From Patescibacteria group bacterium (GTDB taxonomy: Bacteria; Patescibacteriota; Minisyncoccia; UBA6257; UBA9933): 64,000 nt of DNA. The position numbers were made by a program, and so were the translations under genes. The notes below the pieces were generated by a model, which had not been told where the DNA came from, did no database searches, and was given only the letters and a program-made list of their open reading frames with translations. Location of the stretch: assembly GCA_038078555.1 (NCBI GenBank), contig JBBTYQ010000001.1:156158-220157 (forward strand), read 5' to 3'. Below are positions 6,683-23,771 of this stretch, piece by piece. Every line of letters begins with the position of its first letter. The first letter of the stretch is position 1.

Positions 6683-7477
6683 ATGAAAACAATAATTCTT
6701 TGCGGCGGGCAAGGCACAAGAATGAAAGAAGAAACGGAGTTTAAGCCAAAGCCATTAGTTAATGTAGGCGGCAAGCCCATTTTATGGCATATAATGAAAA
6801 TATATGCTCATTATGGTTTTAATGATTTTATTTTAGCACTAGGTTATAAAGGGGACATGATAAAGCAGTATTTCTTGAATTGGCGGAGTTTGACCAATGA
6901 TTTTACGATGGAAACGAAAAACCATGAAATTGTTTTTCATAATAATGATTGTGATGATTTTAAAATTACTTTTGCCGAAACTGGCCTTGAAAGTTTGACT
7001 GGGGAACGAGTCAGGAGATTAAAGAAATATATTAATGGAGATGATTTTATGCTGACATACGGCGATGGAGTGGCAAATATTAATGTAAAAGATCTGGTTG
7101 ATTTTCATAAAAAACAAAATACATTGGGAACGGTTACGGGGATTAAGCCAACTACGCGTTTTGGCTTGTTGAATGTTGATCATCAAACAAAAAAAGTAAA
7201 GGAATTTTTTCAGCACAAAGTAACTGATTCCAATGAATTGCGTGATGGAGATGATAATTTGATAAATGGCGGATTTATGGTTTTTAAAAACGGTGTCCTA
7301 GATTTAATTCCAGAAAATAGTTTAATAGAAGAGATATTTCCGATTTTAACTAAAAACAATGAATTATCAATCTATGTACACCCGGGAAAATGGAAATGTA
7401 TGGATACTTATAAAGAAGTTGAAGAAATGAATGAACATTGGGAAAAAGATCCATTTTGGAAAGTTTGGGAAGCATAA
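6683..7477 (+). CDS. rfbF: glucose-1-phosphate cytidylyltransferase
   Basis: The N-terminus MKTIILCGGQGTRMKEETEFKPKPLVNVGGKPILWHIMKIYAHYGFNDFILALGYKG is characteristic of RfbF/DdhA. Confidence 0.9.
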   Translation: MKTIILCGGQGTRMKEETEFKPKPLVNVGGKPILWHIMKIYAHYGFNDFILALGYKGDMIKQYFLNWRSLTNDFTMETKNHEIVFHNNDCDDFKITFAETGLESLTGERVRRLKKYINGDDFMLTYGDGVANINVKDLVDFHKKQNTLGTVTGIKPTTRFGLLNVDHQTKKVKEFFQHKVTDSNELRDGDDNLINGGFMVFKNGVLDLIPENSLIEEIFPILTKNNELSIYVHPGKWKCMDTYKEVEEMNEHWEKDPFWKVWEA

Positions 7478-7493
7478 TTGAATTATTTTTTAT

Positions 7494-8453
7494 ATGAAAC
7501 ACGATTTAAAAGGAAAAAATGTTTTAGTGACCGGAGCAACCGGCCTTGTGGGCGGGCATCTTACCGAGAAATTGGTTGAAATGGGCGCCAATGTGCATAT
7601 CACTTACAGGTCATTCAATCCAAAATCATATTTTGCCGGAAAAAAACTCGATGAAAAAGTTATCAGAGCTATTTGCGATATTAAGGACTTTAACAGGGTT
7701 TTTGATGTTATTACCAGATACGAAATTGAATATATTTTTCATGTTGCCGCTCAGCCGATTGTGGGCGTTGCCTATCTTAATCCCAGAGAAACATTGGACG
7801 TTAATATTATGGGCACGGTGAATATTTTGGAAGCCGCAAGATTATCCCCGATAATTAAAGGAATCGTCATTGCTTCAAGCGATAAGGCATACGGGAAAAA
7901 ATGCAGTAATGCCAAAGAAACCGAGCCGATGGCCGGAGACCATCCGTATGATGTTTCAAAATCTTGCACTGATTTAATCGCGCGGACTTATGCCAATACT
8001 TATAATATGTCTTTGGCCGTAAGCCGTTTTGGAAATATTTACGGGCCGGGCGATTTTAATTTCAGCCGGATAGTGCCGGGCATTATGAAAGCGATTATAA
8101 AAAACGAGACGCTTGAAATAAGAAGCGACGGAGAATTTATCCGGGATTATGTTTATGTAAAAGACGTGGCTGACGGCTATATCGCGCTTATGGAAAATAT
8201 GGATAAAATCAAAGGCGAAGCGTTTAATTTCAGCACCGGATACAATTTTTCCGTTGTTGAAACAATCAGAAAAATTGAAAAAATTCTAGGCGAAAAATGC
8301 AATTATAAAATTTTAAATACCCAAAAAAATGAAATCCCTTTCCAAAGCTTGAATTTTGAGAAAGTTACAAAAGTTCTGGGATGGAAATCAAAATACACGA
8401 TTGAAGAAGGAATCGTGGAAACATTTAATTGGTATAAAGAATATTTTAAGTAA
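7494..8453 (+). CDS. NAD-dependent sugar 4,6-dehydratase/epimerase (CDP-glucose 4,6-dehydratase-like)
   Basis: Rossmann motif VTGATGLVGGHL and SDR catalytic motif PYDVSK. It lies directly after rfbF. Confidence 0.75.
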   Translation: MKHDLKGKNVLVTGATGLVGGHLTEKLVEMGANVHITYRSFNPKSYFAGKKLDEKVIRAICDIKDFNRVFDVITRYEIEYIFHVAAQPIVGVAYLNPRETLDVNIMGTVNILEAARLSPIIKGIVIASSDKAYGKKCSNAKETEPMAGDHPYDVSKSCTDLIARTYANTYNMSLAVSRFGNIYGPGDFNFSRIVPGIMKAIIKNETLEIRSDGEFIRDYVYVKDVADGYIALMENMDKIKGEAFNFSTGYNFSVVETIRKIEKILGEKCNYKILNTQKNEIPFQSLNFEKVTKVLGWKSKYTIEEGIVETFNWYKEYFK

Positions 8454-8476
8454 TTTTATCGGGTTTAAAGAAAATA

Positions 8477-8506
8477 AAAACCGCCAATAATGGCGGTTTT
8501 TATTTT
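8477..8506 (+). terminator. intrinsic terminator after the dehydratase gene
   Basis: ACCGCCA-ataa-TGGCGGT hairpin followed by a T-run. Confidence 0.8.
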
Positions 8507-8526
8507 TCAAGATATTTGATTATTAT

Positions 8527-8631
8527 TTGACTTTGTTAATTAAAATTGATATAAAATAAACAGAACACAAAAGCGCATTATGCGCTAAAAATAAAAATTC
8601 CACTTAACGGAATAAATATGGAGGTATATCG
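8527..8631 (+). promoter_or_regulatory. promoter + conserved leader, module copy 1
   Basis: TTGACT (8527-8532), 17-bp spacer, then TATAAA (8550-8555). Next come AGAACACAAAAGCG, the palindrome AGCGCATTATGCGCT (8572-8586), a weak second hairpin (8598-8612), the GGAGG SD and ATG at 8632. Confidence 0.75.
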
Positions 8632-10128
8632 ATGGATAGCGTAAAAAAGCTTTTCATTTTTGAAATGGCCAATAATCATATGGGAAGCGTGGAACACGGG
8701 CTAAAAATTATCAGGGATATTTATGAAGTAAGTAAACATTTTAATTCTGTATGCGCTTTTAAATTCCAATATCGGAATTTGGAAACTTTTATCCACCCTG
8801 ATTATAAAGAACGGATGGACTTAAAATACGTGAAGCGTTTCTCCGAAACCAAGCTTACAGAAGAAGAATCTTTAATACTAAAAAAAGAAGCGGAGGCACT
8901 TGGCTTTATTACCATATGCACGCCCTTTGATGAAGCGTCTGTGGATTTAGCGGTGCAGCATGGCTACGATGTTATAAAAGTAGCGAGCGCTTCTTGCACT
9001 GATTGGTCTTTACTCGAAAAAATCGCTTTAGTTGACAAGCCTATCATAATTTCTACCGGAGGAGTTAAGCTGGAAGATATCGATAAGGTGGTCAGTTTTT
9101 TTCAGCATCGCAATAAGCAATTTGTTTTAATGCATTGCGTTGGAGAATATCCAACCGCGCCTAATCGTTTGCAGTTAAATCAAATAGATTTATTCAGGGA
9201 GAGGTATTTAAAAATACCAATTGGATTTTCTACTCATGAAGACCCGAATAATTTCGACGCGATTAAAATAGCGATGGCAAAGGGAGCTGAAGTTTTTGAA
9301 AGGCACGTTAGCGTTAAATCGGATAAGTATGAGATGAACGCTTATTCATCAACGCCCGATCAAATTAAGAAATGGCTGGAATCCGCCAAAGAAGCCTACG
9401 AAATGTGCGGAGAAGCCGGTCAACGCGCCTATTTTTCAGAAAAAGAAATTGCGGATATCAGGCAATTTCAAAGAGGTGCGTTTGCTAAGCGCGACATAGA
9501 AAAAGGCGAGCGCGTTGATACTAGTAACACTTTCTCGGCTTTTCCTAATCAACCCGGACAGATATTGGCAAATGACTTGTCAAAATACACGGTTTTTATC
9601 GCGCTTGAAAAAATCGGTAAAAATTGTCCGGCGGTCAATGTAAGCAGGGTAGATACCAGAGACAAGGTTTATGATATAGTTCAGAAATCAAGAGCGCTTT
9701 TGGCTGAAGCCAAAATCTCAGTTTCCAACAAGCTGGAGCTTGAAATCAGCCATCACTACGGCATCGATAAGTTTTACGAATGCGGCGCGGTGATCATTAC
9801 CTGCGTGAACCGGGAATACACGAAAAAACTGATACTTGTTTTTCCCGGCCAGCAAAGACATCCTTTGCATTTCCATAAAAAAAAGGAAGAAACCTTCCAT
9901 GTCTTATATGGAGATGTAACTTTTGAGCTTGACGGCGCAAAACATGAAACCAAAGCCGGCGATATTGTTGTGGTAGAAAGAGGAGTCAAACATGGGTTCT
10001 CTTCAAAGAGCGGTGCGATTTTTGAAGAAATATCAACCACTCATTATAAAGACGACTCTTTTTATGAAGACCCCGCTATAAATGAAAATCCATTCAGAAA
10101 AACCAGATTGAGCTTCTGGGTTGATTAA
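8632..10128 (+). CDS. NeuB-family (sialic-acid-synthase-like) PEP-condensing enzyme fused to SAF and C-terminal cupin domains
   Basis: N-terminal FIFEMANNHMGS and HCVGEYPT...STHE motifs of NeuB/SpsE TIM barrels. SAF-like segment RGAFAKRDIEKGERV. C-terminal cupin segment HPLHFHKKKEETFHVLYGDV...GDIVVVERGVKHGF. Confidence 0.75.
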   Translation: MDSVKKLFIFEMANNHMGSVEHGLKIIRDIYEVSKHFNSVCAFKFQYRNLETFIHPDYKERMDLKYVKRFSETKLTEEESLILKKEAEALGFITICTPFDEASVDLAVQHGYDVIKVASASCTDWSLLEKIALVDKPIIISTGGVKLEDIDKVVSFFQHRNKQFVLMHCVGEYPTAPNRLQLNQIDLFRERYLKIPIGFSTHEDPNNFDAIKIAMAKGAEVFERHVSVKSDKYEMNAYSSTPDQIKKWLESAKEAYEMCGEAGQRAYFSEKEIADIRQFQRGAFAKRDIEKGERVDTSNTFSAFPNQPGQILANDLSKYTVFIALEKIGKNCPAVNVSRVDTRDKVYDIVQKSRALLAEAKISVSNKLELEISHHYGIDKFYECGAVIITCVNREYTKKLILVFPGQQRHPLHFHKKKEETFHVLYGDVTFELDGAKHETKAGDIVVVERGVKHGFSSKSGAIFEEISTTHYKDDSFYEDPAINENPFRKTRLSFWVD

Positions 10129-10159
10129 TTAATCAGCAATTAGTTGGTTATTTTATTCA

Positions 10160-10190
10160 GGAGGGCATATTCCACGCCCTCCTTTTTATT
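10160..10190 (+). terminator. intrinsic terminator
   Basis: GGAGGGC-9 nt-GCCCTCC followed by a T-run. Confidence 0.8.
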
Positions 10191-10193
10191 AAC

Positions 10194-10318
10194 TTGACTT
10201 TTGTTGTAAAAGATATTATAATGTATATAGAACACAAAAGCGTATTTATGTACGTTAAAAAACAAAAAAGATAGACAAGCCCATAAAACATCAAATTTTA
10301 GCTTAAGGAGGGACAGCG
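10194..10318 (+). promoter_or_regulatory. promoter + conserved leader, module copy 2
   Basis: TTGACT (10194-10199), 17-bp spacer, then TATAAT (10217-10222). Next come AGAACACAAAAGCG, a degenerate hairpin (10239-10256), a longer A-rich leader, the AGGAGGG SD and ATG at 10319. Confidence 0.7.
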
Positions 10319-10822
10319 ATGAGATACGAAAACGATAAAAAAGCGGCAGTTGAAGCATTGGCAAAGATTGATCCGTTCCAGCCTCTTGGAGCAGAGCTTT
10401 TTAATGCGATTTTTCGAGTATCAGTTGGCATCGCGATTGAGACAGTCGCGATTCGCCGGAATTCCGAAACTGGAAAAGTGGAAGTTTTTCTAACGTGGCG
10501 AAACGAAACAGCGCCTACTTATAAAAACACTTGGCATGTTCCGGGTTCATACATGAGACCCGGAGAAACAATTAAGAAAACGATTGAGCGTATCGCAAGG
10601 GATGAATTTAAGTGTTCTATTAAAGTGATTAAGGATGCTGGATGGAAAGACAATCCGACCGAAGAAAGAGGTAGTTGCGTCCATCTTGTATTTCTAGTCG
10701 GTATTGGCGAACCAAAAAATGGGAAATGGTTTCCGGTTAATGAATTACCATCAGAAACGATCGAACATCATCGCCACGTTGTAATCCCTATAGCAGTTGA
10801 AGCTTTTAAGAGCATTAGTTAA
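10319..10822 (+). CDS. Nudix-fold protein with partly degenerate Nudix box
   Basis: WHVPGSYMRPGETIKKTIERIARDEF aligns to GX5EX7REUXEEXGU with several catalytic positions changed. It is a paralogue of 19010..19471. Confidence 0.6.
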   Translation: MRYENDKKAAVEALAKIDPFQPLGAELFNAIFRVSVGIAIETVAIRRNSETGKVEVFLTWRNETAPTYKNTWHVPGSYMRPGETIKKTIERIARDEFKCSIKVIKDAGWKDNPTEERGSCVHLVFLVGIGEPKNGKWFPVNELPSETIEHHRHVVIPIAVEAFKSIS

Positions 10823-10848
10823 CAGAATTAATTTTCTGGTTTTAACCA

Positions 10849-10877
10849 AGGAGGGATTAATATCCCTCCTTTTTTTA
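10849..10877 (+). terminator. intrinsic terminator
   Basis: AGGAGGGAT-ttaa-ATCCCTCCT followed by a T-run. Confidence 0.85.
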
Positions 10878-10963
10878 TTGACTTTGCCGGCAAAAGCTAA
10901 TATAAAATAAGAAGAACATCAAATCCGCTTAGCGGAATAAAAAACAAATATGGAGGAATTGAA
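10878..10963 (+). promoter_or_regulatory. promoter + conserved leader, module copy 3
   Basis: TTGACT (10878-10883), 17-bp spacer, then TATAAA (10901-10906). Next come AGAACATCAAA, the hairpin TCCGC-TTA-GCGGA (10924-10936), the GGAGG SD and ATG at 10964. Confidence 0.7.
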
Positions 10964-11989
10964 ATGAATAAAGCTAGGGATTTGACCGGTCAAGCGCCGG
11001 GAGGACAGCGAATAAAACTGGCAGAAGCGCTTCCATTGAGCACTCCGCTGGTGGTGCAGATATTTCCTGTTTATGCCTGCAATTTTAAATGTAATTACTG
11101 TATTTTTCAGCTAGACAAGAAAGAAAGGGGTTTTATTTCGGACAAAGCCGTTATGAGCTTTGAGTTGTACAAGAAAGTTATAAAAGAGCTGGCTTTATTT
11201 CCTAATAAAATAAAAGTGTTGCGTTTTGTCGGAATAGGCGAGCCCTTGCTTCATCCGAGGATAACCAATATGGTTGATTACGCGGTTTTTAAAGGAGTGG
11301 CGGATAAAGTTGAAATTCTGACAAACGCTTCTCCTTTAACGAAGAATATGTCAGATGCGTTGATATCAGCCGGACTTTCAAGATTGGTTATTTCTCTTCA
11401 GGGCTTAACAGCAGAAAAGTACTGGGAAACAAGCAAAATCAAGATAAATTTCAAGGCCTTTATTGAGAATATCAAGTACTTTTTTCAAAATAAAGGCAAG
11501 GCGCATGTTTATATTAAAATAGTAGACAGCGCCTTAGACGGCAAAGAAGACGAAGCGAAATTTTACGAGATATTTGGGAAAATTTGCGATAGCTTGGCAA
11601 TTGAGCATATTGTTCCCATACATTCAGGCGTAGATTACGAAAAAGCGTTGAAAGGCAAAGATATTTCTCAAACTCAGTTTGGTTTGCCTGTTTCAGAGCT
11701 GAAAATTTGCCCCCAGCCATTTTTCCATATGCAGATTAACCCTGATGGAAAGGTAGTCTCGTGCTATTCCTGGGATTATCCGAAAATCATAGGGGATTGC
11801 AATAACGAATCTGTATTTGAAATATGGAGTGGTAAGAAATTTCAGCATTTTAGAAGAAAGATGCTAGATGGAAGAAAGAGCGTATGCAAGATTTGCGCGG
11901 AGTGCAAGATAAGCACCTATCGGATGTTTCCGGAAGATGTTATCAGCGACGAAGACGCAGAAAGACTTAAAAAGTTTTATAAATTTTAA
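10964..11989 (+). CDS. radical SAM enzyme with C-terminal Cys-rich (SPASM/twitch-like) extension
   Basis: CNFKCNYC is a CX3CX2C motif near the N-terminus. The C-terminal region has additional cysteines (CPQPF...VSCYSW...CKICAECK). Confidence 0.8.
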   Translation: MNKARDLTGQAPGGQRIKLAEALPLSTPLVVQIFPVYACNFKCNYCIFQLDKKERGFISDKAVMSFELYKKVIKELALFPNKIKVLRFVGIGEPLLHPRITNMVDYAVFKGVADKVEILTNASPLTKNMSDALISAGLSRLVISLQGLTAEKYWETSKIKINFKAFIENIKYFFQNKGKAHVYIKIVDSALDGKEDEAKFYEIFGKICDSLAIEHIVPIHSGVDYEKALKGKDISQTQFGLPVSELKICPQPFFHMQINPDGKVVSCYSWDYPKIIGDCNNESVFEIWSGKKFQHFRRKMLDGRKSVCKICAECKISTYRMFPEDVISDEDAERLKKFYKF

Positions 11990-11993
11990 TTTG

Positions 11994-12020
11994 GAGGGGA
12001 CTTGTTCCCCTCTTTTTATT
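11994..12020 (+). terminator. intrinsic terminator
   Basis: GAGGGGA-cttgt-TCCCCTC followed by a T-run. Confidence 0.85.
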
Positions 12021-12024
12021 TTAA

Positions 12025-12130
12025 TTGACTTTATTGGTAAAAATTACTATAAGTATAGCAGAACACCAAAGCGTATTTTACGCGCTAACAAATAATTCCC
12101 GCTTATCGGGATAAATAAGGGAGAATATCA
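12025..12130 (+). promoter_or_regulatory. promoter + conserved leader, module copy 4
   Basis: TTGACT (12025-12030), 17-bp spacer, then TATAAG (12048-12053). Next come AGAACACCAAAGCG, hairpin 1 (12070-12087), hairpin 2 TCCCG-CTTAT-CGGGA (12097-12111), the GGGAG SD and ATG at 12131. Confidence 0.75.
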
Positions 12131-13372
12131 ATGGTATGCATATTATCAAAACCATCAAAGCAGTCTTTATTGGATGAAATAAAAAGCAAAAAATTGCCTG
12201 TTGTAATAGCCGGAGCGGGCGTTGTGGGCAAGACTTTGCTGTCAATCTGTAAAGATAATGGGATTGAAGTGGAGTGTTTTTGCGATAACAGCAAGAAAGT
12301 GGCCGAAGTTAAAAAATTTTGCGGGTTGGAGGTAATTTATACTCCTGATTTAAAAAAGAAGTATAAAAACGCAATAGTTTTGATATCAGTTGCTTCAATA
12401 AAAGATACAGTTGACTTGCTTCACAATCTTGGATTTTTTAATTGGTATGCTGGCGGCTTGCTGCTTAAGGATTTTGATGTTTCTCAAAATTCAGATGACG
12501 CTTCTTTGGATTATGCCAAGTTTGCCATAGAAAATTGCATTCTATGCCACGATGGTTATTTGAATCCAGACAAGCTTTTTTTGAGAAGCATAGATGTTGT
12601 TATCACTGAATGCTGTTCCTTAAAATGCAAAGATTGTTCCAATCTTATGCAGTATTACGAAAATCCCAAGAATTGCGACATCGGTATGTTGCTTAAATCC
12701 TTAGATGCTTTTTGCGCAATTGTGGATGAGGTGATGGATTTTCGGGTGATCGGCGGAGAGCCGTTTGTAAATAAAGAGTGGTATTTGATAGTCAGGAGGT
12801 TAGTGGCTGAACCAAAAGCAAAAAGAGTGGTGATATATACGAATGGAACAATTGTGCCTGATAAAAAACACATTCCGCTTTTAAAGAACAAAAAAGTACT
12901 TGTGATAATTTCGGATTATGGAACTTTATCAAAGAAGTTATCCGAATTAAAGCAAGTGCTGGAGGAAAATAAAATCGCTCATCATGTTTTGAAAATAACC
13001 GAGTGGCTTGATTGCTCGGCTATAGCGGCTCATAATCGCGGTGTTCGGCAGAATAAGGAAATATTCCGAGTCTGTTGTGCCAAAAATATGGCCACTTTAT
13101 TTGATGGAAAGTTGTATAGGTGCCCCTATTCGGCAAATGCCGATAGATTAGCTGCGATTCCGGATTGTAAAAGCGATTATGTCGATATTATGCATGAGCC
13201 GATTAGCGCGAAAAACATTCGCGCAATCAAAAACAAAGTTAAGCGTTTTCTTTTGTATAAGGAGTATCTTAAGGCATGCGATTTTTGCAATGGAAGACCT
13301 TTGTCCGGCGTTGAAGTGCCGCCCAGCGCGCAGATAGAAAAACCTTTGAAGTATCGCAAATATTCCGAATAA
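12131..13372 (+). CDS. radical SAM enzyme with N-terminal Rossmann-like domain
   Basis: CSLKCKDC (CX3CX2C) at about aa 162-169. N-terminal VVIAGAGVVGKTLL is a glycine-rich loop. C-terminal cysteines are present (CCAKN...YRCPY...CDFCNG). Confidence 0.75.
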   Translation: MVCILSKPSKQSLLDEIKSKKLPVVIAGAGVVGKTLLSICKDNGIEVECFCDNSKKVAEVKKFCGLEVIYTPDLKKKYKNAIVLISVASIKDTVDLLHNLGFFNWYAGGLLLKDFDVSQNSDDASLDYAKFAIENCILCHDGYLNPDKLFLRSIDVVITECCSLKCKDCSNLMQYYENPKNCDIGMLLKSLDAFCAIVDEVMDFRVIGGEPFVNKEWYLIVRRLVAEPKAKRVVIYTNGTIVPDKKHIPLLKNKKVLVIISDYGTLSKKLSELKQVLEENKIAHHVLKITEWLDCSAIAAHNRGVRQNKEIFRVCCAKNMATLFDGKLYRCPYSANADRLAAIPDCKSDYVDIMHEPISAKNIRAIKNKVKRFLLYKEYLKACDFCNGRPLSGVEVPPSAQIEKPLKYRKYSE

Positions 13373-13393
13373 TGTCCGATTTTAAATTAACTC

Positions 13394-13429
13394 GACCCCT
13401 TGCAAAATATATTTTGCAAGGGGTTTTTA
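13394..13429 (+). terminator. intrinsic terminator
   Basis: CCCCTTGCAAAATA-TATTTTGCAAGGGG followed by a T-run. Confidence 0.85.
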
Positions 13430-13470
13430 TTGAATGCAGTATCACATTACTGTATATTAATACTTAATAA
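13396..13470 (+). repeat. direct repeat, copy 1 (terminator ... ATTAATACTTAATAA)
   Basis: It shares CCCCTTGC, AATATATTT, GGGG(C)TTTTTATTG and ATTAATACTTAATA with 14215..14317. Confidence 0.6.
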
Positions 13471-13485: not shown

Positions 13486-13513
13486 TTGACAATTACTGAT
13501 AATTTGATATAAT
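13486..13513 (+). promoter_or_regulatory. near-consensus sigma70-type promoter
   Basis: TTGACA (13486-13491), 16-bp spacer, then TGaTATAAT, an extended -10 (13505-13513). Confidence 0.7.
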
Positions 13514-17322: not shown

Positions 17323-18992
17323 AACTAAGCGATTACGTAATTAAATTTATAAAAGAAGAAGTGGCTGATTCGGTTTTTTTATTGTCCGGCGGAGGCATTA
17401 TGCATTTAGTTGATTCTATCGGTAAATCCGGCATTAACGCTTATTGCTGCCATCATGAACAAGGCGCAACAATTGCCGCTGAAGGATATGGGAGAATAAA
17501 AAATCACCCCGGCGTGGCTGTAGTCACCACCGGACCAGGTGGAACAAACGCCATAACCGGCATTGCCGGAGCTTGGCTGGACAGTATTCCAATGCTCGTT
17601 ATTGCCGGACAAGTGAAGCGTGATAATATTACGCCGAGAAAAAATGGCGTTTTAACCGTAAGACAAATAGGGCTTCAAGAGTTAAATGTTATTGATACAG
17701 TGAAGCCGATTACCAAATATGCGGTAACCGTTGAAAACGAAAAAGAAATCCGCTATCACTTGGAAAAAGCGCTTTATCTGGCAACTCACGGCAGACCGGG
17801 CCCGGTTTTTGTGGAAATCCCCCTTGATGTCCAGGCAGCGGAAATAGAGGCAGACAACCTGAAGACTTTTAATAAATCGGAATTGGAAACAAAATCATTA
17901 AATATAGACGATGCTTTAATGGAAAAAGCGGTTAATTTATTAAAAGAAGCGAAGAAACCGTTGCTTATGGTTGGCAATGGCATTCGATTGGCAGGAGGAG
18001 AAAATATTTTAAGGAAAGTGATTAAAAAATTAAAAATTAACGTTGTTAGCGCGATTTTTACCGCGGACGATTTAGTCACTTATGAATATCCTTATTATTT
18101 GGGACGGCAAGGTATGGTGGGAAATAAAACGGCAAATTACGCCGTGGATAATTGTGATATATTGCTGGTGGTAGGCGAAAGACTGCAATTAACTCAAACT
18201 TCGTATGATTATGACAAGTTTGCCACGCAAGCAAAAAAAATAATGGTGGATATAGATGAGAACGAACTTTATAAAAAAACCGTTAAAATAGACATTCCGA
18301 TTAATTGCGATGCTAAAGTTTTTTTAGAGGAGCTTTATAAACAAGATATAAACTTAAAAAGATGGGACGTAAAAGTTGAGCCGATTAATCCTGATAATTA
18401 TTCCGGCGAGTCAAAATATCTTAATGTTTATAAATTTTTAGAAAAATTAAATAATTGGGCTGGTAAAATGGACGTTGCCACTTCGGACGGAATGGCGAGC
18501 GTTGCTCCGCACCAAGCTCTTAAAATATCAGGAAACCAAAGATTTATTACCAATGCCGGATTGGGCCATATGGGTTCCGGCCTTCCTTTGGCAATTGGCG
18601 CTTGTGTGGCTAATGGTAAGAAACCAGTTATTTGCTCAGAAGGAGACGGTTCAATCATGCTTTGTATTCAGGAATTGCAAACAGTTATTTATAATAAACT
18701 ACCCATAAAAATTTTTATTTTTAACAATAACGGTTACATTTCAATTAGAAATACTCATATGAAATTTTTTGGCAAAATTTTTGCCGCTGATCCGTCATCC
18801 GGCGTAAGCTTCCCAGATTTTTCAAAGCTTATTCCCGCTTGGGGATTGGCTTACGAGCGGATTAATAATAACGATGAATTGGATAAATTAGAGAAAGTCA
18901 TGGATCATCAAGGGCCGATAGTGTGTGAATTAATAATTAATCCTGCTCAACCAATGCTGGAGCGATGGTCAGCGGGAATGCTGAAGGAATAA
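17319..18992 (+). CDS. thiamine-diphosphate-dependent enzyme (acetolactate-synthase large-subunit-like; YerE-type candidate)
   Basis: N-terminal HEQGATIAAEGYGR...GPGGTNAITGIA. ThDP-binding motif GDGSIMLCIQELQT...FNNNGY. 557 aa. Confidence 0.8.
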   Translation: MKLSDYVIKFIKEEVADSVFLLSGGGIMHLVDSIGKSGINAYCCHHEQGATIAAEGYGRIKNHPGVAVVTTGPGGTNAITGIAGAWLDSIPMLVIAGQVKRDNITPRKNGVLTVRQIGLQELNVIDTVKPITKYAVTVENEKEIRYHLEKALYLATHGRPGPVFVEIPLDVQAAEIEADNLKTFNKSELETKSLNIDDALMEKAVNLLKEAKKPLLMVGNGIRLAGGENILRKVIKKLKINVVSAIFTADDLVTYEYPYYLGRQGMVGNKTANYAVDNCDILLVVGERLQLTQTSYDYDKFATQAKKIMVDIDENELYKKTVKIDIPINCDAKVFLEELYKQDINLKRWDVKVEPINPDNYSGESKYLNVYKFLEKLNNWAGKMDVATSDGMASVAPHQALKISGNQRFITNAGLGHMGSGLPLAIGACVANGKKPVICSEGDGSIMLCIQELQTVIYNKLPIKIFIFNNNGYISIRNTHMKFFGKIFAADPSSGVSFPDFSKLIPAWGLAYERINNNDELDKLEKVMDHQGPIVCELIINPAQPMLERWSAGMLKE

Positions 18993-19009
18993 TAAAACGA
19001 ATTTAAATC

Positions 19010-19471
19010 ATGCTCAATAAAAAAGAGTTTAAACAATTATCGTCATTACTGAAAAAAATAAAAAATCCGCACGAGGGTTTGCCTCAGCCGGTTTTTGACG
19101 CTCTGTTAAATGTCGTTCCTTTTTTTGCCTGTGAATTGGTTATTGTCGGCAAAAAAGGAATTTTACTTACCTGGCGCGAGGATAAGTGGTGGAAAGGTTG
19201 GCATTTTCCCGGCGGACTTTTGCGCTATCGCGAGAGCTTTGACGAGCGCATTGCCAAAGTGGCGTTTAACGAATTGGGTATTAATATAAAAAAAAGTAAA
19301 TTTTTATTTTTAAAAAATTATGACCAAGGCATTCGTTGTCATACGATTTCCGCAGTTTTTCTTTGTAAGACCGATATGACGCCCAAAGACGGAAAATTTT
19401 TCGAAAAAATGCCGAAAAATATTATAGAAGAGCATAAGGAGTTGTGGAAGATGGTAAAGAAATATTACTAA
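19010..19471 (+). CDS. Nudix-fold protein with degenerate Nudix box
   Basis: WHFPGGLLRYRESFDERIAKVAFNELGI aligns to the Nudix box, but the RE..EE glutamates are replaced (KVAFNE). It is a paralogue of 10319..10822. Confidence 0.6.
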   Translation: MLNKKEFKQLSSLLKKIKNPHEGLPQPVFDALLNVVPFFACELVIVGKKGILLTWREDKWWKGWHFPGGLLRYRESFDERIAKVAFNELGINIKKSKFLFLKNYDQGIRCHTISAVFLCKTDMTPKDGKFFEKMPKNIIEEHKELWKMVKKYY

Positions 19472-19566
19472 TTTTAGTTTGACATAATTTTTTAAAAAGG
19501 GTATTTTATACAGAGTTAAATAAAAATTTTGACAATTAAATAAGAATAAAAACAGGAGAAACCGCG

Positions 19567-21231
19567 ATGATAGAAGAAAGAAAAGAAAGAATTTTATTCA
19601 TAGTTCCGCCTTATTTGAGCTATGACAATTTTATGAATCCGGCTTTTAACGAGCGTACAGTGGTGAAGAAATCGGGCAGTTATGGAAGCGTGGTTACTGA
19701 TATGCCCATCGGCTTGATGTCCTTAAGTGCTTATCTGAAAAAACATTCCGAGACGGAAATAAAATTGATAGATTTTAATGTAATTTTGAATCAGATTGAA
19801 TCTTTTAAATACCACTCCTTTTTGGATTTTTTTGAAGATATCCTTACATTTAAGTTTAAGGATCTTGTTGATTACAAACCAACCATCGTAGCAATATCTA
19901 CTTTGTTTACGCCGTCTTATTACAATATGTTAATTGCTGCTTTTGCGGCGAAGAATATATTTGCCGATGCTTTGATAATCGCCGGCGGCGGTGTGCCAAC
20001 TAATATGTACAAGGAGATATTCAATGATACTGATTGTATTGACGCGCTTTGTTTTGGAGAAGCGGAAAAACCTTTGTTAGGGCTCGTGAAAGCAGATGAT
20101 AAAAACGAGTTTTTCAAAAATAATCCGTCATGGATTACAAAAGAAAAAGTTGAAAAACATCAGCTGTTTAAATACGACTTTATAGAGGACCTTGATGAAA
20201 TACCATTCTATGATTACAGCATTCTTGATCTATCTGGATATGGTTTGAGCCCGACCATAAGCTCGTATGCCTCTTTTGAAAAAAAGAGCATAATCTTCCA
20301 TGTTTCCACATCAAGAGGCTGTCCCTTTCGTTGTTGTTATTGCGCTTCTCATACTGTTCACGGCAGAAAGATGCGTTATCACAGTGTAGCTCGGATAAAA
20401 GAAGATTTAATGCGTCTTAAAGAACAGTACGGCGCAAATAGAATCGGTTTTCAGGATGACCAGTTTATGGCGGATAAAAAAAGAGCGCTTGAAATTATCA
20501 ACATCGCCAAGGAATTAAAAATGGAAATTTTCTTCCAAAGCGGACTGGCTCTTTATGCTTTAGACAGGAAAATGTTGGAAACCATTAAAGAGGCCGGACT
20601 TAGCCAGCTTGTTTTAGCCATAGAATCGGGCAGTAACAGGGTTTTGAAAGAAGTAATGCACAAACCGCTTAACTTATCCATAATAAAGCGGGTAATTGCC
20701 GATTGCCGGGAATTGGGATTAGATACAGACGCCAATATTCTTATTGGCCTTCCGGGAGAAACAAAGCAGGACATTGAGGATACACGGACGTTCTTGAAGA
20801 CACTAGATGCAACATGGTTCAGAATTTATATCGCAACTCCTCTTATTGGAAGCGAAATGTTCGATATTTGCCTTAAGAAAAATTATCTGAAAGGCAGCCA
20901 TATCGGCAGCGATTTCAAAAGAGCAGTTGTTGAAACGGAAGATTTCAATTCAGACTACATTCAAGAAAAAGCTTATGCTTTAAATCTTGAGCTTAATTTC
21001 GTGGGAAACAGCGATTTCCGATTGAAAAACTATGAAAAAGCTTTGCAAGGTTTTGAGAATACGATAAGAGTAAAAAGCGACCATGCTTTTGCGTATTACT
21101 ACGCCGCAAAGTGTTATGATATGCTTGGTGATACAGAAAAAGCGCAACGTTATATGAATACCGCAAAGCAGATTGTGAAAGAATATCCATTTTGGCGCAA
21201 TTACGCTAATATGTTTCGTGTCCCAATTTAG
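19567..21231 (+). CDS. B12-binding-domain (class B) radical SAM enzyme with C-terminal TPR-like tail
   Basis: The N-terminal roughly 200 aa have the layout of a cobalamin-binding domain. CPFRCCYC (CX3CX2C) lies at about aa 252. The C-terminal AFAYYYAAKCYDMLGDTEKAQRYM is TPR-like. Confidence 0.75.
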   Translation: MIEERKERILFIVPPYLSYDNFMNPAFNERTVVKKSGSYGSVVTDMPIGLMSLSAYLKKHSETEIKLIDFNVILNQIESFKYHSFLDFFEDILTFKFKDLVDYKPTIVAISTLFTPSYYNMLIAAFAAKNIFADALIIAGGGVPTNMYKEIFNDTDCIDALCFGEAEKPLLGLVKADDKNEFFKNNPSWITKEKVEKHQLFKYDFIEDLDEIPFYDYSILDLSGYGLSPTISSYASFEKKSIIFHVSTSRGCPFRCCYCASHTVHGRKMRYHSVARIKEDLMRLKEQYGANRIGFQDDQFMADKKRALEIINIAKELKMEIFFQSGLALYALDRKMLETIKEAGLSQLVLAIESGSNRVLKEVMHKPLNLSIIKRVIADCRELGLDTDANILIGLPGETKQDIEDTRTFLKTLDATWFRIYIATPLIGSEMFDICLKKNYLKGSHIGSDFKRAVVETEDFNSDYIQEKAYALNLELNFVGNSDFRLKNYEKALQGFENTIRVKSDHAFAYYYAAKCYDMLGDTEKAQRYMNTAKQIVKEYPFWRNYANMFRVPI

Positions 21232-21256
21232 TTATAAGGGACGATTATAGATTATA

Positions 21257-21284
21257 GGAGGGGATTTACGTCCCTCCTTTTTAA
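21257..21284 (+). terminator. intrinsic terminator
   Basis: GGAGGGGA-tttacg-TCCCTCC followed by a T-run. Confidence 0.8.
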
Positions 21285-21372
21285 TTGACTTTATTAATAA
21301 AAATTATTATAAGTATAGCAGAACACAAAAGCGCATAAATGCGCTAAAAACAATAAATAAGGAGAAAGTAAG
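21285..21372 (+). promoter_or_regulatory. promoter + conserved leader, module copy 5
   Basis: TTGACT (21285-21290), 17-bp spacer, then TATAAG (21308-21313). Next come AGAACACAAAAGCG, the perfect palindrome AGCGCATAAATGCGCT (21330-21345), the AGGAG SD and ATG at 21373. It is nearly identical to copy 4 over about 60 nt. Confidence 0.75.
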
Positions 21373-22467
21373 ATGAATGATATTAGCAAAACGGTAATAT
21401 CGGGAATAACACAAAGCGAATCAGAAAAAAGAGATAAACTAAAGAAAGAAAAGCCGCGCGTTTACGAGAAAATTTTAAGATACAAGGAGAAAGTGGCCAG
21501 AGGAGAAGCCATTCCCATAATTCAGTTTCAATACCGGTATCCGTGCAACTACACCTGCGAGCACTGTTCCATTAAAAGATTTCAAACCACGAAAAAAGAG
21601 GAAACTGAAGACACAAGACGGGTTTTCACCATTCCGGACGTAAAGGAGCTTTTTCGCCAAGCTGATGAAATGGGTCTTGCCAATATGACAATCACCGGCG
21701 GCGAGCCCTTGCTTTTTCCGGACTTTGACGAGCTTGTTGGAGCAATAGGTCCGGACAGGTTTTACATTGCCTGCGATACCAACGGCTGGTTGCTTAGTAA
21801 GGACTGGGCAAAACGCTTGAAGGCCCTTGGCGTTGATAAAGTTCAGCCAAGTCTTGATAGCTTTTACGAGCATGAGCACGACGAGTTCCGCCAAAAAAAA
21901 GGGTCTTACAAAAGAGTGATGGATGCGATTAATTTTTGCCTTGAAGAAGGGCTAAGCGTCATGTTGCAGACCGTGCTCACAAAACATCGGGCTAGTTCCA
22001 AGGAATTTCTGGAACTATTGGAATTTGCCAAATCCAAAGGCGTTGGCGTTTACGTATGTTATGCTAAGCCGGTTGGAGCTTATGAAGGAAATATGGATTG
22101 CTTAATTACCCAAGAAGATGCCGACCGAGTGCGGGAGCTTGAAAAAGAGTATAACGTTTTTACTCATATGACTCCTTCATACGGCCTTAATCTCGGCTGC
22201 ATTACGGTCAAGCGCATGGTGTCTGTTACCAGATACGGCGATGTTATGCCTTGCCCGTATATTCATGTATCGCTCGGCAATTTCTTTAGCGAGCCATTAA
22301 AAGACATTATCGAGCGGGGCATGCAAATTAAGTGGTTTGGAGAATATCACCCCGAATGCATCTTGGGCGAAAATATGGATTTCATCAAGCTTATCACCGA
22401 TAAGATTAAGGGAAAGCCGCTTCCGATACCTTATACGGAAGTGTTTAAGGAAGAAGATTTTATGTAA
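21373..22467 (+). CDS. radical SAM enzyme
   Basis: CNYTCEHC (CX3CX2C) at about aa 58-65. GGEPLL glycine-rich SAM motif. Confidence 0.8.
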   Translation: MNDISKTVISGITQSESEKRDKLKKEKPRVYEKILRYKEKVARGEAIPIIQFQYRYPCNYTCEHCSIKRFQTTKKEETEDTRRVFTIPDVKELFRQADEMGLANMTITGGEPLLFPDFDELVGAIGPDRFYIACDTNGWLLSKDWAKRLKALGVDKVQPSLDSFYEHEHDEFRQKKGSYKRVMDAINFCLEEGLSVMLQTVLTKHRASSKEFLELLEFAKSKGVGVYVCYAKPVGAYEGNMDCLITQEDADRVRELEKEYNVFTHMTPSYGLNLGCITVKRMVSVTRYGDVMPCPYIHVSLGNFFSEPLKDIIERGMQIKWFGEYHPECILGENMDFIKLITDKIKGKPLPIPYTEVFKEEDFM

Positions 22468-22490
22468 TAAAATGTTCGTTTAAATAAACC

Positions 22491-22518
22491 AAAAGCCTCG
22501 CTCTACGGGGCTTTTTTA
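22491..22518 (+). terminator. intrinsic terminator
   Basis: AGCCTCG-ctcta-CGGGGCT followed by a T-run. Confidence 0.8.
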
Positions 22519-22583
22519 TTTTAAAAAATAAAGTATACGAAAACTTGTAAAAATAAGAAAATAATTTATAATAGTCAGAAGTT

Positions 22584-23771
22584 ATGCGAATACCTTATGC
22601 TTTGGCCGTTTACGGCAAAAATGAAATAAAAGCGGTTAATGATGTTTTAAAAGAACACCGAAAGTTCGCTTCATGGACAAAAACCAGAGAATTTGAGAAA
22701 AAAATAGCGAAACTTTTCGGTAAAAAATACGGAATAATGGTTAATTCCGGCTCTTCGGCTAATTTATTAGCTTTTGAGCTATTAGATTTGCCAAAAGGTT
22801 CGGAAGTGATTACTCCGGTTTTAACTTTTTCCACAACCATTTCGCCTATTCTTAAAAAAGGATTAGTGCCTGTTTTTGTAGATGTGGAAAAGGGCTCATA
22901 TTTGATAGATGAGGACAAAATCGAAAAACTTATTACTCCCAAGACAAAAGCTTTGATGATTCCGTCTTTAATCGGAAATATTCCGAATTTAAAACAATTG
23001 CGCAAAATAGCTGACAAATACAAACTCTATTTAATAGAAGATTCTTGCGATACTTTGGGCGCGAAGTTTGATCGCCGGCCAACTGGAAAATATTCGGATA
23101 TATCGACAACCAGTTTTTACGGGTCTCATATCATAACTGCGGCTGGCGGCGGCGGAATGATTTGTGTTAATAGGCCGGAGTGGCATAAACGAGCTCTTGT
23201 TTTGCGCGGCTGGGGGAGGTCTTCGGCATTATTTTCGGAATCTGAAGATTTAAATAAGCGATTCAGTGAAAAAATTAACGGCATTCCGTATGATGGAAAA
23301 TTTATTTTTGGCGAAGCGGGTTATAATTTCCAGCCAATTGAGATTCAAGCCGCTTTTGGCCTTGAGCAATTAAAGCGCCTTAAAACATTTTCTGCTACTC
23401 GAGCGAGAAGCTTCAAAGCGTTGAATAAGTTTTTTGAGAAATACGATAAATATTTTATTTTACCAAAATCCACAAAAGGCGCAGATACAAATTGGCTTGC
23501 TTTTCCTCTTACAATAAAAGAAAATGCTCCATTTTCCCGCATGGAGATTGTTAAATATTTAGAAAAAAATGACATTCAAACACGGCCGATTTTTACCGGC
23601 AATATCTTAAGACAGCCCGGATTTAAAAAAATTGCCAAAACTCAAAATAAATATCCAGTAGCCGATTATGTTATGGCTAATTCTTTTTTAATAGGCTGTC
23701 ATCATGGTATGGAGAAAAAACATATCCAATATCTTAAAGAAAAATTTAATTCTTTTTTGGATAAAAAATAA
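22584..23771 (+). CDS. DegT/DnrJ/EryC1-family enzyme of the His-for-Lys type (nucleotide-sugar 4-keto-6-deoxyhexose 3-dehydratase, ColD/E1-like)
   Basis: VNSGSSANLLAF and SFYGSHIITAAGGGG are present. The position of the Schiff-base Lys of aminotransferases (SFHxxK..T.GEGG) is occupied by His, as in E1/ColD. No C-terminal Cys cluster is seen. Confidence 0.65.
   Translation: MRIPYALAVYGKNEIKAVNDVLKEHRKFASWTKTREFEKKIAKLFGKKYGIMVNSGSSANLLAFELLDLPKGSEVITPVLTFSTTISPILKKGLVPVFVDVEKGSYLIDEDKIEKLITPKTKALMIPSLIGNIPNLKQLRKIADKYKLYLIEDSCDTLGAKFDRRPTGKYSDISTTSFYGSHIITAAGGGGMICVNRPEWHKRALVLRGWGRSSALFSESEDLNKRFSEKINGIPYDGKFIFGEAGYNFQPIEIQAAFGLEQLKRLKTFSATRARSFKALNKFFEKYDKYFILPKSTKGADTNWLAFPLTIKENAPFSRMEIVKYLEKNDIQTRPIFTGNILRQPGFKKIAKTQNKYPVADYVMANSFLIGCHHGMEKKHIQYLKEKFNSFLDKK

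Follow-up and report, generated by a model that had tools for sequence, protein, structure and literature searches.

What does a 17-kb block of sugar-modifying genes carrying four radical-SAM (rSAM) enzymes make in a groundwater ultra-small bacterium? We examined a 64,000 nt stretch (the window) of a Patescibacteria genome (GCA_038078555.1, contig JBBTYQ010000001.1), in which an earlier note, made from sequence alone, had listed 14 genes between positions 6683 and 23771 and inferred a locus for one or more heavily tailored sugars (deoxy, branched and/or C-methylated, possibly a PEP-derived higher sugar) with an unusual rSAM load. The observation held: all 14 ORFs were present on the + strand where the note placed them, and Pfam and NCBIfam searches returned the expected domains, with the exception of a SAF domain in the NeuB protein, which was not detected by Pfam and is only implied by alignment to the 350-aa SpsE-like structure 3g8r. 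The note also missed a 192-aa ORF at 13591-14169. This ORF had no family hit, was absent from all relatives, carries Zn-ribbon-like Cys motifs and a C-terminal hydrophobic helix, and has its own consensus promoter at 13486-13513; its function is unknown and it is probably a lineage-specific insertion rather than part of the cassette.

Five genes resembled those of acyl-branched sugar synthesis. The first (6683-7477, +) encodes an NTP_transferase-domain, RfbF-like sugar-1-phosphate cytidylyltransferase scoring 274.8 bits to the glucose-1-P cytidylyltransferase model (TIGR02623), just under the cut-off of 300. The second (7494-8453, +) is an RfbG-like SDR with GDP_Man_Dehyd/Epimerase Pfam hits, whose best NCBIfam hit was CDP-glucose 4,6-dehydratase (215 bits; cut-off 278). 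A DegT family gene (22584-23771, +), with RfbH as best hit, encodes a PMP-dependent NDP-4-keto-6-deoxyhexose 3-dehydratase scoring 260 bits to the E1 structures 3bcx/3bb8 and 183 bits to ColD. The His-for-Lys substitution proposed in the note is real, as SFYGSHIIT aligns with SFYPAHHIT of E1 (His220). However, the [2Fe-2S] cysteines of E1 (CxCx7C), which are present in relatives, are absent here as in ColD, and GGGG replaces the GEGG of relatives; this enzyme may work differently or poorly. As RfbF, RfbG and RfbH all scored below their equivalog cut-offs, the nucleotide and sugar are not certain. The three-domain ThDP enzyme (17319-18992, +) is a YerE-like carboligase that scored 354 bits to JanthE (8rph) and 255 to PpYerE (5ahk), against no more than about 215 to acetolactate synthases, and reached 357 bits against the acetolactate synthase equivalog cut-off of 538. 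The fifth (15421-16377, +) is a YerF/ErwF-type SDR, putatively a side-chain ketoreductase, 49-68 % identical in relatives.

Two further genes may provide a donor. The gene at 8632-10128 (+) encodes a NeuB-type PEP-condensing synthase (147 bits) fused to a metal-binding cupin (Cupin_2), a fusion conserved in all of the 120 best-scoring homologues listed. The PseI and NeuB equivalog models scored only 133 bits against cut-offs of 340 and 400, and the best PDB hit was 3g8r (352 bits). The gene at 16390-17322 (+) encodes a Cof-type HAD-IIB phosphatase (Hydrolase_3). In relatives, a HAD of one type or another sits beside the NeuB-cupin or ThDP gene, whether Hydrolase_3, HAD_2 or an unannotated family of ~200 aa with a WDIDDV (DxDxV) motif. 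That three unrelated HAD types are swapped across cassettes argues that a phosphatase step is required.

All four rSAM translations carry CX3CX2C. The note had stated that its reading would fail if these proteins fell into characterized non-sugar subgroups; instead, none reached an NCBIfam cut-off, and their nearest characterized relatives all act on sugars or nucleotides. rSAM1 (10964-11989, +; 56-68 % identical in relatives) has a SPASM/twitch C-terminal domain and matched the BtrN twitch domain and the DesII core in the PDB. rSAM2 (12131-13372, +) comprises an N-terminal Rossmann-like (C2185-like_N) domain fused to a twitch-type core. It had 1556 homologues, of which the best 120 listed were 55-77 % identical and spanned several phyla, with CX3CX2C invariant and nine further Cys invariant or nearly so. 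Its AF2 model (pLDDT 83) gave the SpeY twitch rSAM dehydrogenase (E 2e-10), then BtrN, as top Foldseek hits. The protein at 19567-21231 (+) combines B12-binding (41.9 bits), Radical_SAM (82.5 bits) and C-terminal TPR domains; its best NCBIfam hit scored 142 bits against a cut-off of 575, and its best PDB hit was AprD4 (6fd2; E 7e-20), whilst TsrM scored only 18.6 bits. As it is closer to AprD4, a dehydratase, than to solved methylases, the C-methylation raised in the note is not established. rSAM4 (21373-22467, +; Radical_SAM 89.8 bits, partial SPASM) is 53-61 % identical in relatives and nearest to MoaA, a viperin-like enzyme and BlsE.

The remaining members are two Nudix-fold proteins and a glycosyltransferase. 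Nudix protein 1 (10319-10822, +; 26.5 bits) has a degenerate Nudix box and homologues in only two Patescibacteria-type relatives, loci L005 (a Saccharibacteria MAG) and L007. Nudix protein 2 (19010-19471, +) belongs to a family that keeps only the last Glu of the box, and a profile search placed GDP-mannose mannosyl hydrolase first in the PDB (E 7e-9). The GT2 gene (14318-15424, +; Glycos_transf_2, 127 bits) travels with rSAM2, usually abutting it, and is proposed to be the dedicated transferase for the product sugar. A terminator-promoter-leader unit was identified as a repeat at 8517-8630 (+), 10183-10274, 10866-10961, 12015-12128 and 21273-21369; an nhmmer profile found exactly these five copies in the window, all inside the block, and the element is shared by NeuB-cupin, Nudix1, rSAM1, rSAM2 and rSAM4. 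The block sits within a glycan assembly locus. Upstream (269-6569, +) are three GT4, one GT2, one Glyco_trans_1_2-type transferase and one methyltransferase, whilst downstream (23955-33247) are a Wzx flippase, GT4, GT2, carbamoyltransferase, GT2, a third Nudix, a second Wzx (-) and an initiating Bac_transf (-).

Lack of conservation as a unit in relatives had likewise been named as a result that would count against the note, but the arrangement is more than chance. The cassette was found at 50-68 % protein identity, often in the same gene order, in Patescibacteria, Desulfobacterota-type MAGs, Nitrospirae, Synergistia, Victivallales, Omnitrophota, Methanoperedens and Nanoarchaeia. Among 28 rSAM2-anchored loci from other species with at least 8 kb on both sides, 26 carried the GT2, 23 the Nudix (Nudix2), 22 rSAM4, 21 the ThDP enzyme and 17 the NeuB-cupin, and 20 carried at least three of the four rSAM families. 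All 17 loci with the NeuB-cupin also had the ThDP enzyme. The canonical order in relatives was RfbF-RfbG-E1-NeuBcup-HAD-like-ThDP-GT2-rSAM2-rSAM4-(B12)-Nudix-rSAM1-SDR, in which NeuB-cupin plus HAD flanks the ThDP gene. Six loci anchored independently on NeuB-cupin homologues all carried a ThDP enzyme within 10 kb; in four of these the NeuB-cupin, a HAD or HAD-like gene and the ThDP gene sat together, followed by a Nudix or Nudix-sized ORF in three, and none had CTP_transf_3.

The above results support the interpretation given in the note, with refinements. We favour, with moderate confidence, a conserved, horizontally spread cassette that makes a long acyl- or polyhydroxyalkyl-branched deoxyhexose for a cell-surface glycan, by a version of the YerE/ErwE 'acyl-branched sugar' pathway with a PEP-derived donor and anaerobic radical tailoring. 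In this view, RfbF, RfbG and the 3-dehydratase would make a CDP-4-keto-3,6-dideoxyhexose acceptor, whilst the NeuB-cupin would condense PEP with an aldose or aldose phosphate, which the cupin may first isomerise and which the GDP-mannose-mannosyl-hydrolase-like Nudix protein may release from a nucleotide sugar. The HAD would then dephosphorylate the product to a 3-deoxy-2-ulosonic (4-hydroxy-2-oxo) acid, the donor, which the ThDP enzyme would decarboxylate and add to C-4 of the keto sugar, and the SDR would reduce the side-chain carbonyl. The NeuB-cupin is more likely the supplier of the keto-acid donor than the maker of a separate sialic-acid-like sugar. The four rSAM enzymes (two twitch/SPASM dehydrogenase-like, one AprD4/class-B-like and one MoaA/BlsE-like) would tailor the sugar or side chain by oxygen-independent chemistry, possibly oxidation or epimerisation, deoxygenation and perhaps C-methylation. 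The GT2 would install the product, with flanking glycosyltransferases, Wzx and the initiating transferase building and exporting the glycan. Our data show the domain identities, homology to the YerE-type gene set, conserved synteny and the absence of an aldolase and of a CMP-ulosonate synthetase; the donor role of NeuB-cupin plus HAD, the Nudix role, every rSAM reaction and the product structure are inferred, without biochemical or glycan-structure evidence. NeuB-family enzymes are known only as nonulosonic-acid synthases and none is known to feed a ThDP carboligase. Moreover, the GT2-rSAM2-Nudix-rSAM1 (+/- rSAM4, B12) module occurs without NeuB, ThDP or RfbFGH within 10 kb in Sulfuricella, Dechloromonas, Pseudothauera and Ignavibacteria loci, and the rSAM enzymes may therefore tailor a sugar core independently of the branch.

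An alternative that appears unlikely, yet survives best, is that two or more independent sugars are made side by side: a short-branched yersiniose-like sugar (RfbF/G/H, ThDP with pyruvate, SDR) and a separate nonulosonic- or Kdo-like acid (NeuB-cupin, HAD, Nudix), one of which is tailored by the rSAM enzymes. NeuB-family enzymes are established ulosonic-acid synthases, the combination of cupin isomerase, synthase and HAD phosphatase mirrors KdsD/KdsA/KdsC logic, YerE itself uses pyruvate (PMC9306805) and the locus has two Wzx flippases. In contrast, no CMP-ulosonate synthetase (PF02348) was found in the window block or in seven Pfam-annotated related loci, no NeuC/PseG-type hydrolase or acetyltransferase is present, the PseI and NeuB scores are far below cut-off, and NeuB-cupin and ThDP co-occurred in 17 of 17 and 6 of 6 loci, usually adjacent. 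Slightly less likely, the rSAM/GT2/Nudix module may be an autonomous tailoring unit for a different nucleotide sugar, merely co-located and often co-transferred with a YerE-type module. It was found without NeuB, ThDP or RfbFGH within 10 kb in rSAM2-anchored loci L017, L018, L026, L040 and L044, and distant rSAM2 homologues in Pelagibacteraceae and other taxa travel mainly with the GT2 alone. However, in 21 of 28 close loci the module is interleaved with the ThDP gene, in a fixed order in at least seven phylogenetically distant genomes, the NeuB-cupin and three rSAM genes of the window share one promoter-leader element, and the YerF-like SDR overlaps or abuts rSAM1 in relatives. A secondary-metabolite (aminoglycoside- or nucleoside-antibiotic-like) cluster is very unlikely, for although SpeY, BtrN, AprD4, DesII and BlsE all come from antibiotic pathways and weak rSAM2 homologues occur in Streptomyces and Nonomuraea, the block lies in a Patescibacteria genome among at least ten glycosyltransferases, two Wzx flippases and an initiating phosphoglycosyl transferase, relatives have Wzy, GtrA and Bac_transf genes nearby, and no aminocyclitol, resistance or export genes typical of such clusters were seen.

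Lastly, the note had accepted that a gene-for-gene match to a published pathway would overturn its reading. We found such correspondence for five genes only (RfbF, RfbG, 3-dehydratase, ThDP and SDR), which match the published acyl-branched sugar scheme of yersiniose, erwiniose and caryophyllose (PMC9306805); the lead to YerE given in the note was right and can be extended to this scheme, although prior description of the present arrangement is not excluded, as the comparison did not extend to Krug et al. 2024, which surveyed more than 200 YerE-like clusters. The neighbourhood of JanthE, the closest solved homologue, is RfbF-RfbG-DegT-JanthE-SDR-acetaldehyde dehydrogenase-DmpG aldolase-SDR-GT2, and RfbF, RfbG, RfbH, ThDP and SDR of the window hit those genes at 39, 28, 36, 35 and 37 % identity, respectively, the last over its full length (E 1e-62) to the SDR immediately downstream of JanthE. 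The ThDP identity is thus only 35 %, and the physiological substrates of JanthE are themselves unknown (PMC12188165). The published clusters and the JanthE cluster supply the keto-acid donor with a pyruvate aldolase, and in the JanthE and Erw clusters the aldolase pair sits a gene or two from the ThDP gene. No class II aldolase family turned up among the recurrent gene families of 29 related loci, and the cassette described here instead has a NeuB-cupin fusion plus a HAD phosphatase next to the ThDP gene.

The block lies inside a larger glycan locus in a window of about 32-40 % G+C, in which nearly all genes of the first 30 kb are on the + strand. Its B12-domain radical-SAM (rSAM) protein is encoded identically on an ENA contig named Hain_H41_01um (243 kb), a name that suggests a 0.1-µm groundwater fraction. 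Upstream of the block are three GT4 genes, one GT2, one Glyco_trans_1_2-type transferase and a methyltransferase, whilst downstream are a Wzx flippase, GT4, GT2, a carbamoyltransferase, GT2, a third Nudix gene, a second Wzx and an initiating Bac_transf on the opposite strand. The two Wzx-type flippases (23955-25412, + strand; 30465-31922, - strand) are convergent and 46 % identical, with the NodU-like carbamoyltransferase (27392-29176) and the third Nudix gene (29973-30422) between them. A search of Rfam at the gathering threshold returned a single hit in the window, a tmRNA gene at 51354-51717 on the - strand (RF00023, 149.9 bits), and nothing in the block.

The observation set out in the earlier note was borne out: every ORF that it listed is present at its given start with the domain content it described, and all four rSAM proteins carry CX3CX2C. 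Three corrections apply. A 192-aa ORF at 13591-14169 had been overlooked, the SAF domain ascribed to the NeuB protein is not detected by Pfam, and the 3-dehydratase, although it has the His-for-Lys change, lacks the [2Fe-2S] cysteines of E1. The 192-aa ORF carries Zn-ribbon-like CPNC...CACSC motifs and a C-terminal hydrophobic helix, has been inserted between the Rossmann-rSAM gene (rSAM2) and its usually abutting GT2, has its own perfect TTGACA-16-TATAAT promoter (13486-13513), matches no family and is absent from all related cassettes.

Conservation of the genes as a unit in relatives had been named beforehand as a test of the note's reading, and the block proved to be such a unit. The rSAM2 protein (12131) had 1556 homologues in the search (E at most 1e-5), of which the best 120 listed are 55-77 % identical and come from several phyla; the CX3CX2C motif is invariant and nine further cysteines are invariant or nearly so. 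A scan of one genome per species returned 80 loci, and a tblastn search of all window proteins against them showed that the NeuB-cupin, rSAM1, rSAM2, the GT2 at 14318, the SDR, the ThDP enzyme, Nudix2, the B12-rSAM, rSAM4 and RfbF/G/H-like genes co-occur at 50-68 % identity. The carriers are MAGs of Roizmanbacteria, Wolfebacteria, Deltaproteobacteria, Smithella, Nitrospirae, Synergistia, Desulfatibacillum, Victivallales, Desulfatitalea, Desulfosoma and Omnitrophota, and of the archaea Methanoperedens and Nanoarchaeia. At least seven distant genomes share one order, RfbF-RfbG-E1-NeuBcup-(~200-aa ORF)-ThDP-GT2-rSAM2-rSAM4-(B12)-Nudix-rSAM1-SDR. Among 28 close loci with at least 8 kb on both sides, the GT2 was present in 26, Nudix2 in 23, rSAM4 in 22, the ThDP enzyme in 21, the NeuB-cupin in 17, the 3-dehydratase in 17, RfbG in 16, rSAM1 in 16, RfbF in 13, the B12-rSAM in 12 and the SDR in 10, and 20 of the 28 carried at least three of the four rSAM families. 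Relatives often add further tailoring genes, including a second B12-rSAM family, a fifth rSAM, a TylC3-like C-methyltransferase, an FkbM methyltransferase and extra SDRs. In the Nanoarchaeota cassette (locus L089), a LAGLIDADG/NUMOD3 homing-endonuclease-like gene (20638-21530) lies next to a B12-rSAM gene.

A gene-for-gene match to a published pathway had likewise been named in advance as a point against the note's reading, and we found such a match for five genes only. Steitz et al. 2022 (PMC9306805) showed the logic of the relevant pathway class, in which YerE-like enzymes couple a functionalized alpha-keto acid, made by a pyruvate aldolase, to CDP-4-keto-3,6-dideoxyglucose, followed by a YerF-like reductase and a dedicated glycosyltransferase, accounting for yersiniose, erwiniose, caryophyllose and 'gastriose'. 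The ThDP enzyme of the block is not an acetolactate synthase: it scores 354 bits to JanthE (8rph) and 255 bits to PpYerE (5ahk), against about 215 or less for acetolactate synthases, and falls below the acetolactate synthase equivalog cut-off; its activity was not assayed. Most of the JanthE sequence was rebuilt from the HMMER alignment, the protein was recovered from the database and its neighbourhood was read, giving the order RfbF-RfbG-DegT-JanthE-SDR-acetaldehyde dehydrogenase-DmpG-type aldolase-SDR-GT2, an erwiniose-type cluster. The RfbF, RfbG, RfbH, ThDP and SDR proteins of the window hit those genes at 39, 28, 36, 35 and 37 % identity, the SDR over its full length with E 1e-62 to the SDR next to JanthE. 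The best NCBIfam hits of the cytidylyltransferase and 4,6-dehydratase are the CDP-glucose enzymes, though below the equivalog cut-offs (274.8 bits against 300 and 215 against 278).

The 3-dehydratase (22584-23771) has His in place of the Schiff-base Lys, its SFYGSHIIT aligning with SFYPAHHIT of E1, and scores 260 bits to E1. Fifteen of 16 relatives have E1-type proteins with SFYPxHHIT, GEGG and a CxCx7C motif, whereas the window protein has GGGG and no cysteines at that site, and no E3-like reductase gene was seen in the block. It resembles ColD in needing no Fe-S cluster or E3 partner, and is a diverged, ColD-like or possibly impaired variant of E1 whose activity was not examined. ColD-type enzymes work without either the motif or the partner.

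The block departs from the published scheme in the supply of the keto-acid donor. No aldolase domain, the ErwI/MMAR_2331/MygI type that would supply branches longer than C2, was found in the window block or among the recurrent gene families of 29 related loci, although one is present in the JanthE cluster. Beside the ThDP gene sits a NeuB-cupin fusion instead. Its Pfam NeuB domain is clear (147 bits), but the PseI and NeuB equivalogs score only 133 bits against cut-offs of 340 and 400, and the best solved relative is the uncharacterized SpsE-like 3g8r. A phosphatase accompanies it, which is a Cof-type HAD in the window and in two other Patescibacteria MAGs (loci L003 and L015), a HAD_2 protein in others and, in most non-CPR cassettes, a ~200-aa protein with no Pfam hit that starts with the HAD motif WDIDDVLND. 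We considered that this ~200-aa ORF, found between the NeuB-cupin and ThDP genes in relatives, might correspond to Nudix1 or the 192-aa ORF of the window, but a profile search found no similarity and its WDIDDV motif marks it as HAD-like. Swapping between unrelated HAD types suggests that the step itself is needed. Six loci anchored independently on NeuB-cupin homologues all carry a ThDP enzyme within 10 kb; in four of them the NeuB-cupin, a HAD or HAD-like gene and the ThDP gene sit together, followed by a Nudix or Nudix-sized ORF in three. No CMP-ulosonate synthetase domain (NeuA/PseF/KdsB, PF02348) was found in the block or in the Pfam-annotated related loci L001 and L085-L090. In one Patescibacteria relative (L088, 10001-12592) the NeuB-cupin is fused to an N-terminal SDR of the dehydratase/epimerase type (863 aa), and in several other loci such an SDR gene lies directly upstream.

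A NeuB-type reaction (PEP plus an aldehyde) gives a 4-hydroxy-2-oxo acid, the same chemical class as the aldolase products used by ErwE, and on this basis we infer that the NeuB-cupin and HAD supply the donor. The cupin has the His/Glu metal motifs and weak similarity to lyxose and mannose-6-phosphate isomerases; its structure was not modelled, and its role is a guess. The Nudix2 family keeps only the last glutamate of the Nudix box, which reads K-V-A-x-x-E-x-G where the canonical box has R-E-U-x-E-E-x-G, and its profile matches GDP-mannose mannosyl hydrolase (GDPMH) best in the PDB (E 7e-9). The box resembles that of GDPMH itself, an enzyme that releases a free sugar from a nucleotide sugar. 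This suggests, by inference only, that the aldose for the NeuB step may come from a nucleotide sugar, as in pseudaminic- and legionaminic-acid pathways.

Assignment of the rSAM proteins to subgroups, which had been proposed as a check, gave no placement from NCBIfam because none of the four reaches a curated family cut-off. In a predicted structure of rSAM2 (AlphaFold, pLDDT 83), the only rSAM protein modelled, the core superposes best on the twitch dehydrogenase SpeY (E 2e-10, TM 0.63-0.65 on the target) and then on BtrN (E 1e-5), whilst the N-terminal domain resembles nucleotide-binding Rossmann-like domains, including that of VioB. Pfam calls this domain C2185-like_N (PF22674), and in related cassettes (L085, 3742-4902 and 7726-8892; L089, 4944-6125) it is also fused to FkbM-type and class I methyltransferases, so it may be a shared substrate-binding module for tailoring enzymes. 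In addition to C162, C166 and C169 of the CX3CX2C cluster, rSAM2 has invariant C315, C316, C331, C383 and C386 as C-terminal auxiliary-cluster cysteines. rSAM1, compared by sequence only, has CNFKCNYC and a full-length SPASM hit and matches the BtrN twitch domain and the DesII core. The B12-domain enzyme combines a B12-binding domain (PF02310, 41.9 bits against a cut-off of 32.1) with an rSAM core (PF04055, 82.5 bits) and matches AprD4 best (E 7e-20), while the solved methylase TsrM scores only 18.6 bits. Its best family models, the Sden_1168 P-methyltransferase (142 bits against a cut-off of 575) and HpnJ (133 bits), are both far below cut-off, and methylation is therefore not established; with the closest solved structure a non-methylating enzyme, these scores do not settle membership of a characterized methylase family or use of cobalamin either way, nor do they decide between a methylase and a dehydratase. 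The nearest relatives of rSAM4 are MoaA, a viperin-like enzyme and BlsE. All of these relatives act on sugars or nucleotides, which fits tailoring of a nucleotide sugar or its side chain, although no reaction was assigned to any of the four and two-electron oxidation of a sugar secondary alcohol was not assayed.

The version of the cassette in the window is not a tight operon. Many genes are separated by 140-220 nt containing a G+C hairpin with a T-run, a TTGACT-N17-TATAA promoter and a conserved leader with a short hairpin. A profile of this ~95-115-nt unit finds exactly five copies in the 64-kb window, all inside the block, at 8517-8630, 10183-10274, 10866-10961, 12015-12128 and 21273-21369, upstream of the NeuB-cupin, Nudix1, rSAM1, rSAM2 and rSAM4, respectively. 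The layout is a terminator hairpin, the promoter, AGAACAC.AAA, a short GCGCA/TGCGC hairpin (TCCGC/GCGGA in one copy) and an AAGGAG ribosome-binding site. The unit may be a shared regulator site or an RNA leader, and it links the five genes functionally.

In sum, the inference in the earlier note of a locus for one or more heavily tailored sugars is upheld, save that the C-methylation it raised as one option is not established. The block is best described as a YerE-type acyl-branched deoxysugar pathway distinguished by a PEP-dependent NeuB-cupin/HAD donor module in place of an aldolase and by a heavy load of uncharacterized rSAM enzymes, and it is widely shared among anaerobes, CPR bacteria and archaea. 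The domain content, shared gene order and homology to the YerE-type genes were observed directly, whereas the donor role of the NeuB-cupin and HAD, the part played by Nudix2 and the tailoring by rSAM enzymes are inferred; the glycan was not analysed for a C-4 acyl- or hydroxyalkyl-branched sugar. Literature searches on rSAM enzymes with CDP-glucose, dideoxy or branched sugars, on YerE with rSAM enzymes, on the structures 7WZV, 7WZX and 7X0B, on SpeY and spectinomycin and on rSAM enzymes with glycosyltransferases in Patescibacteria gave nothing on this gene combination, within a literature that did not extend to the directly relevant survey of Krug et al. 2024 or to Lanza et al. 2024 (Angew. 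Chem.).

If this model holds, it would extend the acyl-branched-sugar scheme beyond aerobic Proteobacteria and mycobacteria, the cassette being widespread and horizontally shared among uncultivated anaerobes, CPR bacteria and archaea, and it would give the NeuB family a new role as supplier of a keto-acid donor to a ThDP carboligase. It would also define several large rSAM families with no characterized member, which are candidates for new oxygen-independent sugar chemistry, and would point to an elaborate surface sugar kept by genome-reduced episymbionts, which may bear on host attachment or phage evasion. ThDP enzymes of this class are also sought as biocatalysts for tertiary alcohols.

The GT2-rSAM2-Nudix-rSAM1 module, with or without rSAM4 and the B12-rSAM, occurs without NeuB, ThDP or RfbFGH genes within 10 kb in some Betaproteobacteria and Ignavibacteria (loci L017, L018, L026, L040 and L044, from Sulfuricella, Dechloromonas, Pseudothauera and Ignavibacteria), one Dechloromonas locus having six rSAM genes, and the rSAM chemistry may therefore be independent of the branch. 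Among culturable species suggested by the related loci, the matches for Victivallis vadensis and Sulfuricella denitrificans are MAGs, and Pseudothauera nasutitermitis carries the rSAM module only. A more far-reaching possibility, which we regard as tentative and less likely than not, is that both partners of the ThDP ligation derive from nucleotide sugars. In this view, a tailored sugar would be released by the Nudix hydrolase, extended with PEP by the NeuB-cupin to a C8-C9 ulosonic acid, and decarboxylatively joined through a C-C bond to C-4 of a CDP-3,6-dideoxy-4-ketohexose, giving a 'sugar-on-sugar' branched monosaccharide of 13 or more carbons that several uncharacterized rSAM families would then remodel without oxygen. 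This would be an anaerobic route to caryophyllose- or gastriose-like sugars, shared by CPR bacteria, DPANN and methanotrophic archaea, and diverse anaerobes. A phosphonate pathway, suggested by the P-methyltransferase hit of the B12-rSAM, was rejected because no PEP mutase is present and the score is far below cut-off, and hopanoid-type HpnH/I/J logic was rejected for weak scores and the glycan context.

Among known systems, GDPMH (Gmm/WcaH/NudD) shares with Nudix2 a Nudix fold, the modified box and a place in polysaccharide loci, but the similarity covers only about 75 residues, and the substrate nucleotide and the bond cleaved were not tested. AprD4, a cobalamin-independent rSAM diol dehydratase paired with the reductase AprD3, and the class B cobalamin rSAM methyltransferases share with the B12-rSAM an N-terminal B12-binding-like domain and an rSAM core, and SDR reductases are present in the cassette; however, the AprD4 family model scores only 90 bits against a cut-off of 500, lower than the Sden_1168 and HpnJ models, and the protein has a C-terminal TPR extension. 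With regard to the twitch dehydrogenases BtrN (butirosin) and SpeY (spectinomycin) and to DesII, sequence identity is only about 20 %, rSAM2 has the extra N-terminal domain, no substrates are assigned and the context is glycan rather than antibiotic. The nonulosonic-acid and Kdo pathways (NeuB/PseI/LegI; KdsD-KdsA-KdsC-KdsB) also have a PEP-dependent NeuB-family synthase, possibly with an isomerase (here a cupin) before it and a HAD phosphatase after it, and include a candidate nucleotide-sugar hydrolase that could release a free sugar, but the block has no CMP-ulosonate synthetase and no amino or acetyl tailoring set, its synthase scores about a third of the PseI and NeuB cut-offs, and that synthase is genetically coupled to a ThDP decarboxylating carboligase. 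The acyl-branched sugar pathways for yersiniose (YerE/YerF), erwiniose (ErwE/F/I/J), caryophyllose (MMAR_2331-2333) and 'gastriose' (MyGE/MygI/MygF) (PMC9306805) share CDP-hexose activation, a 4,6-dehydratase, a His-type PMP 3-dehydratase, a YerE-like ThDP carboligase, a YerF-like SDR and a dedicated glycosyltransferase with the cassette, the ThDP and SDR genes being clear homologues of those in the JanthE cluster. Where those published clusters supply the donor with a class II or HpcH-type pyruvate aldolase (plus an aldehyde dehydrogenase), this cassette carries the NeuB-cupin fusion and a HAD phosphatase, and adds Nudix proteins and three to six rSAM enzymes.
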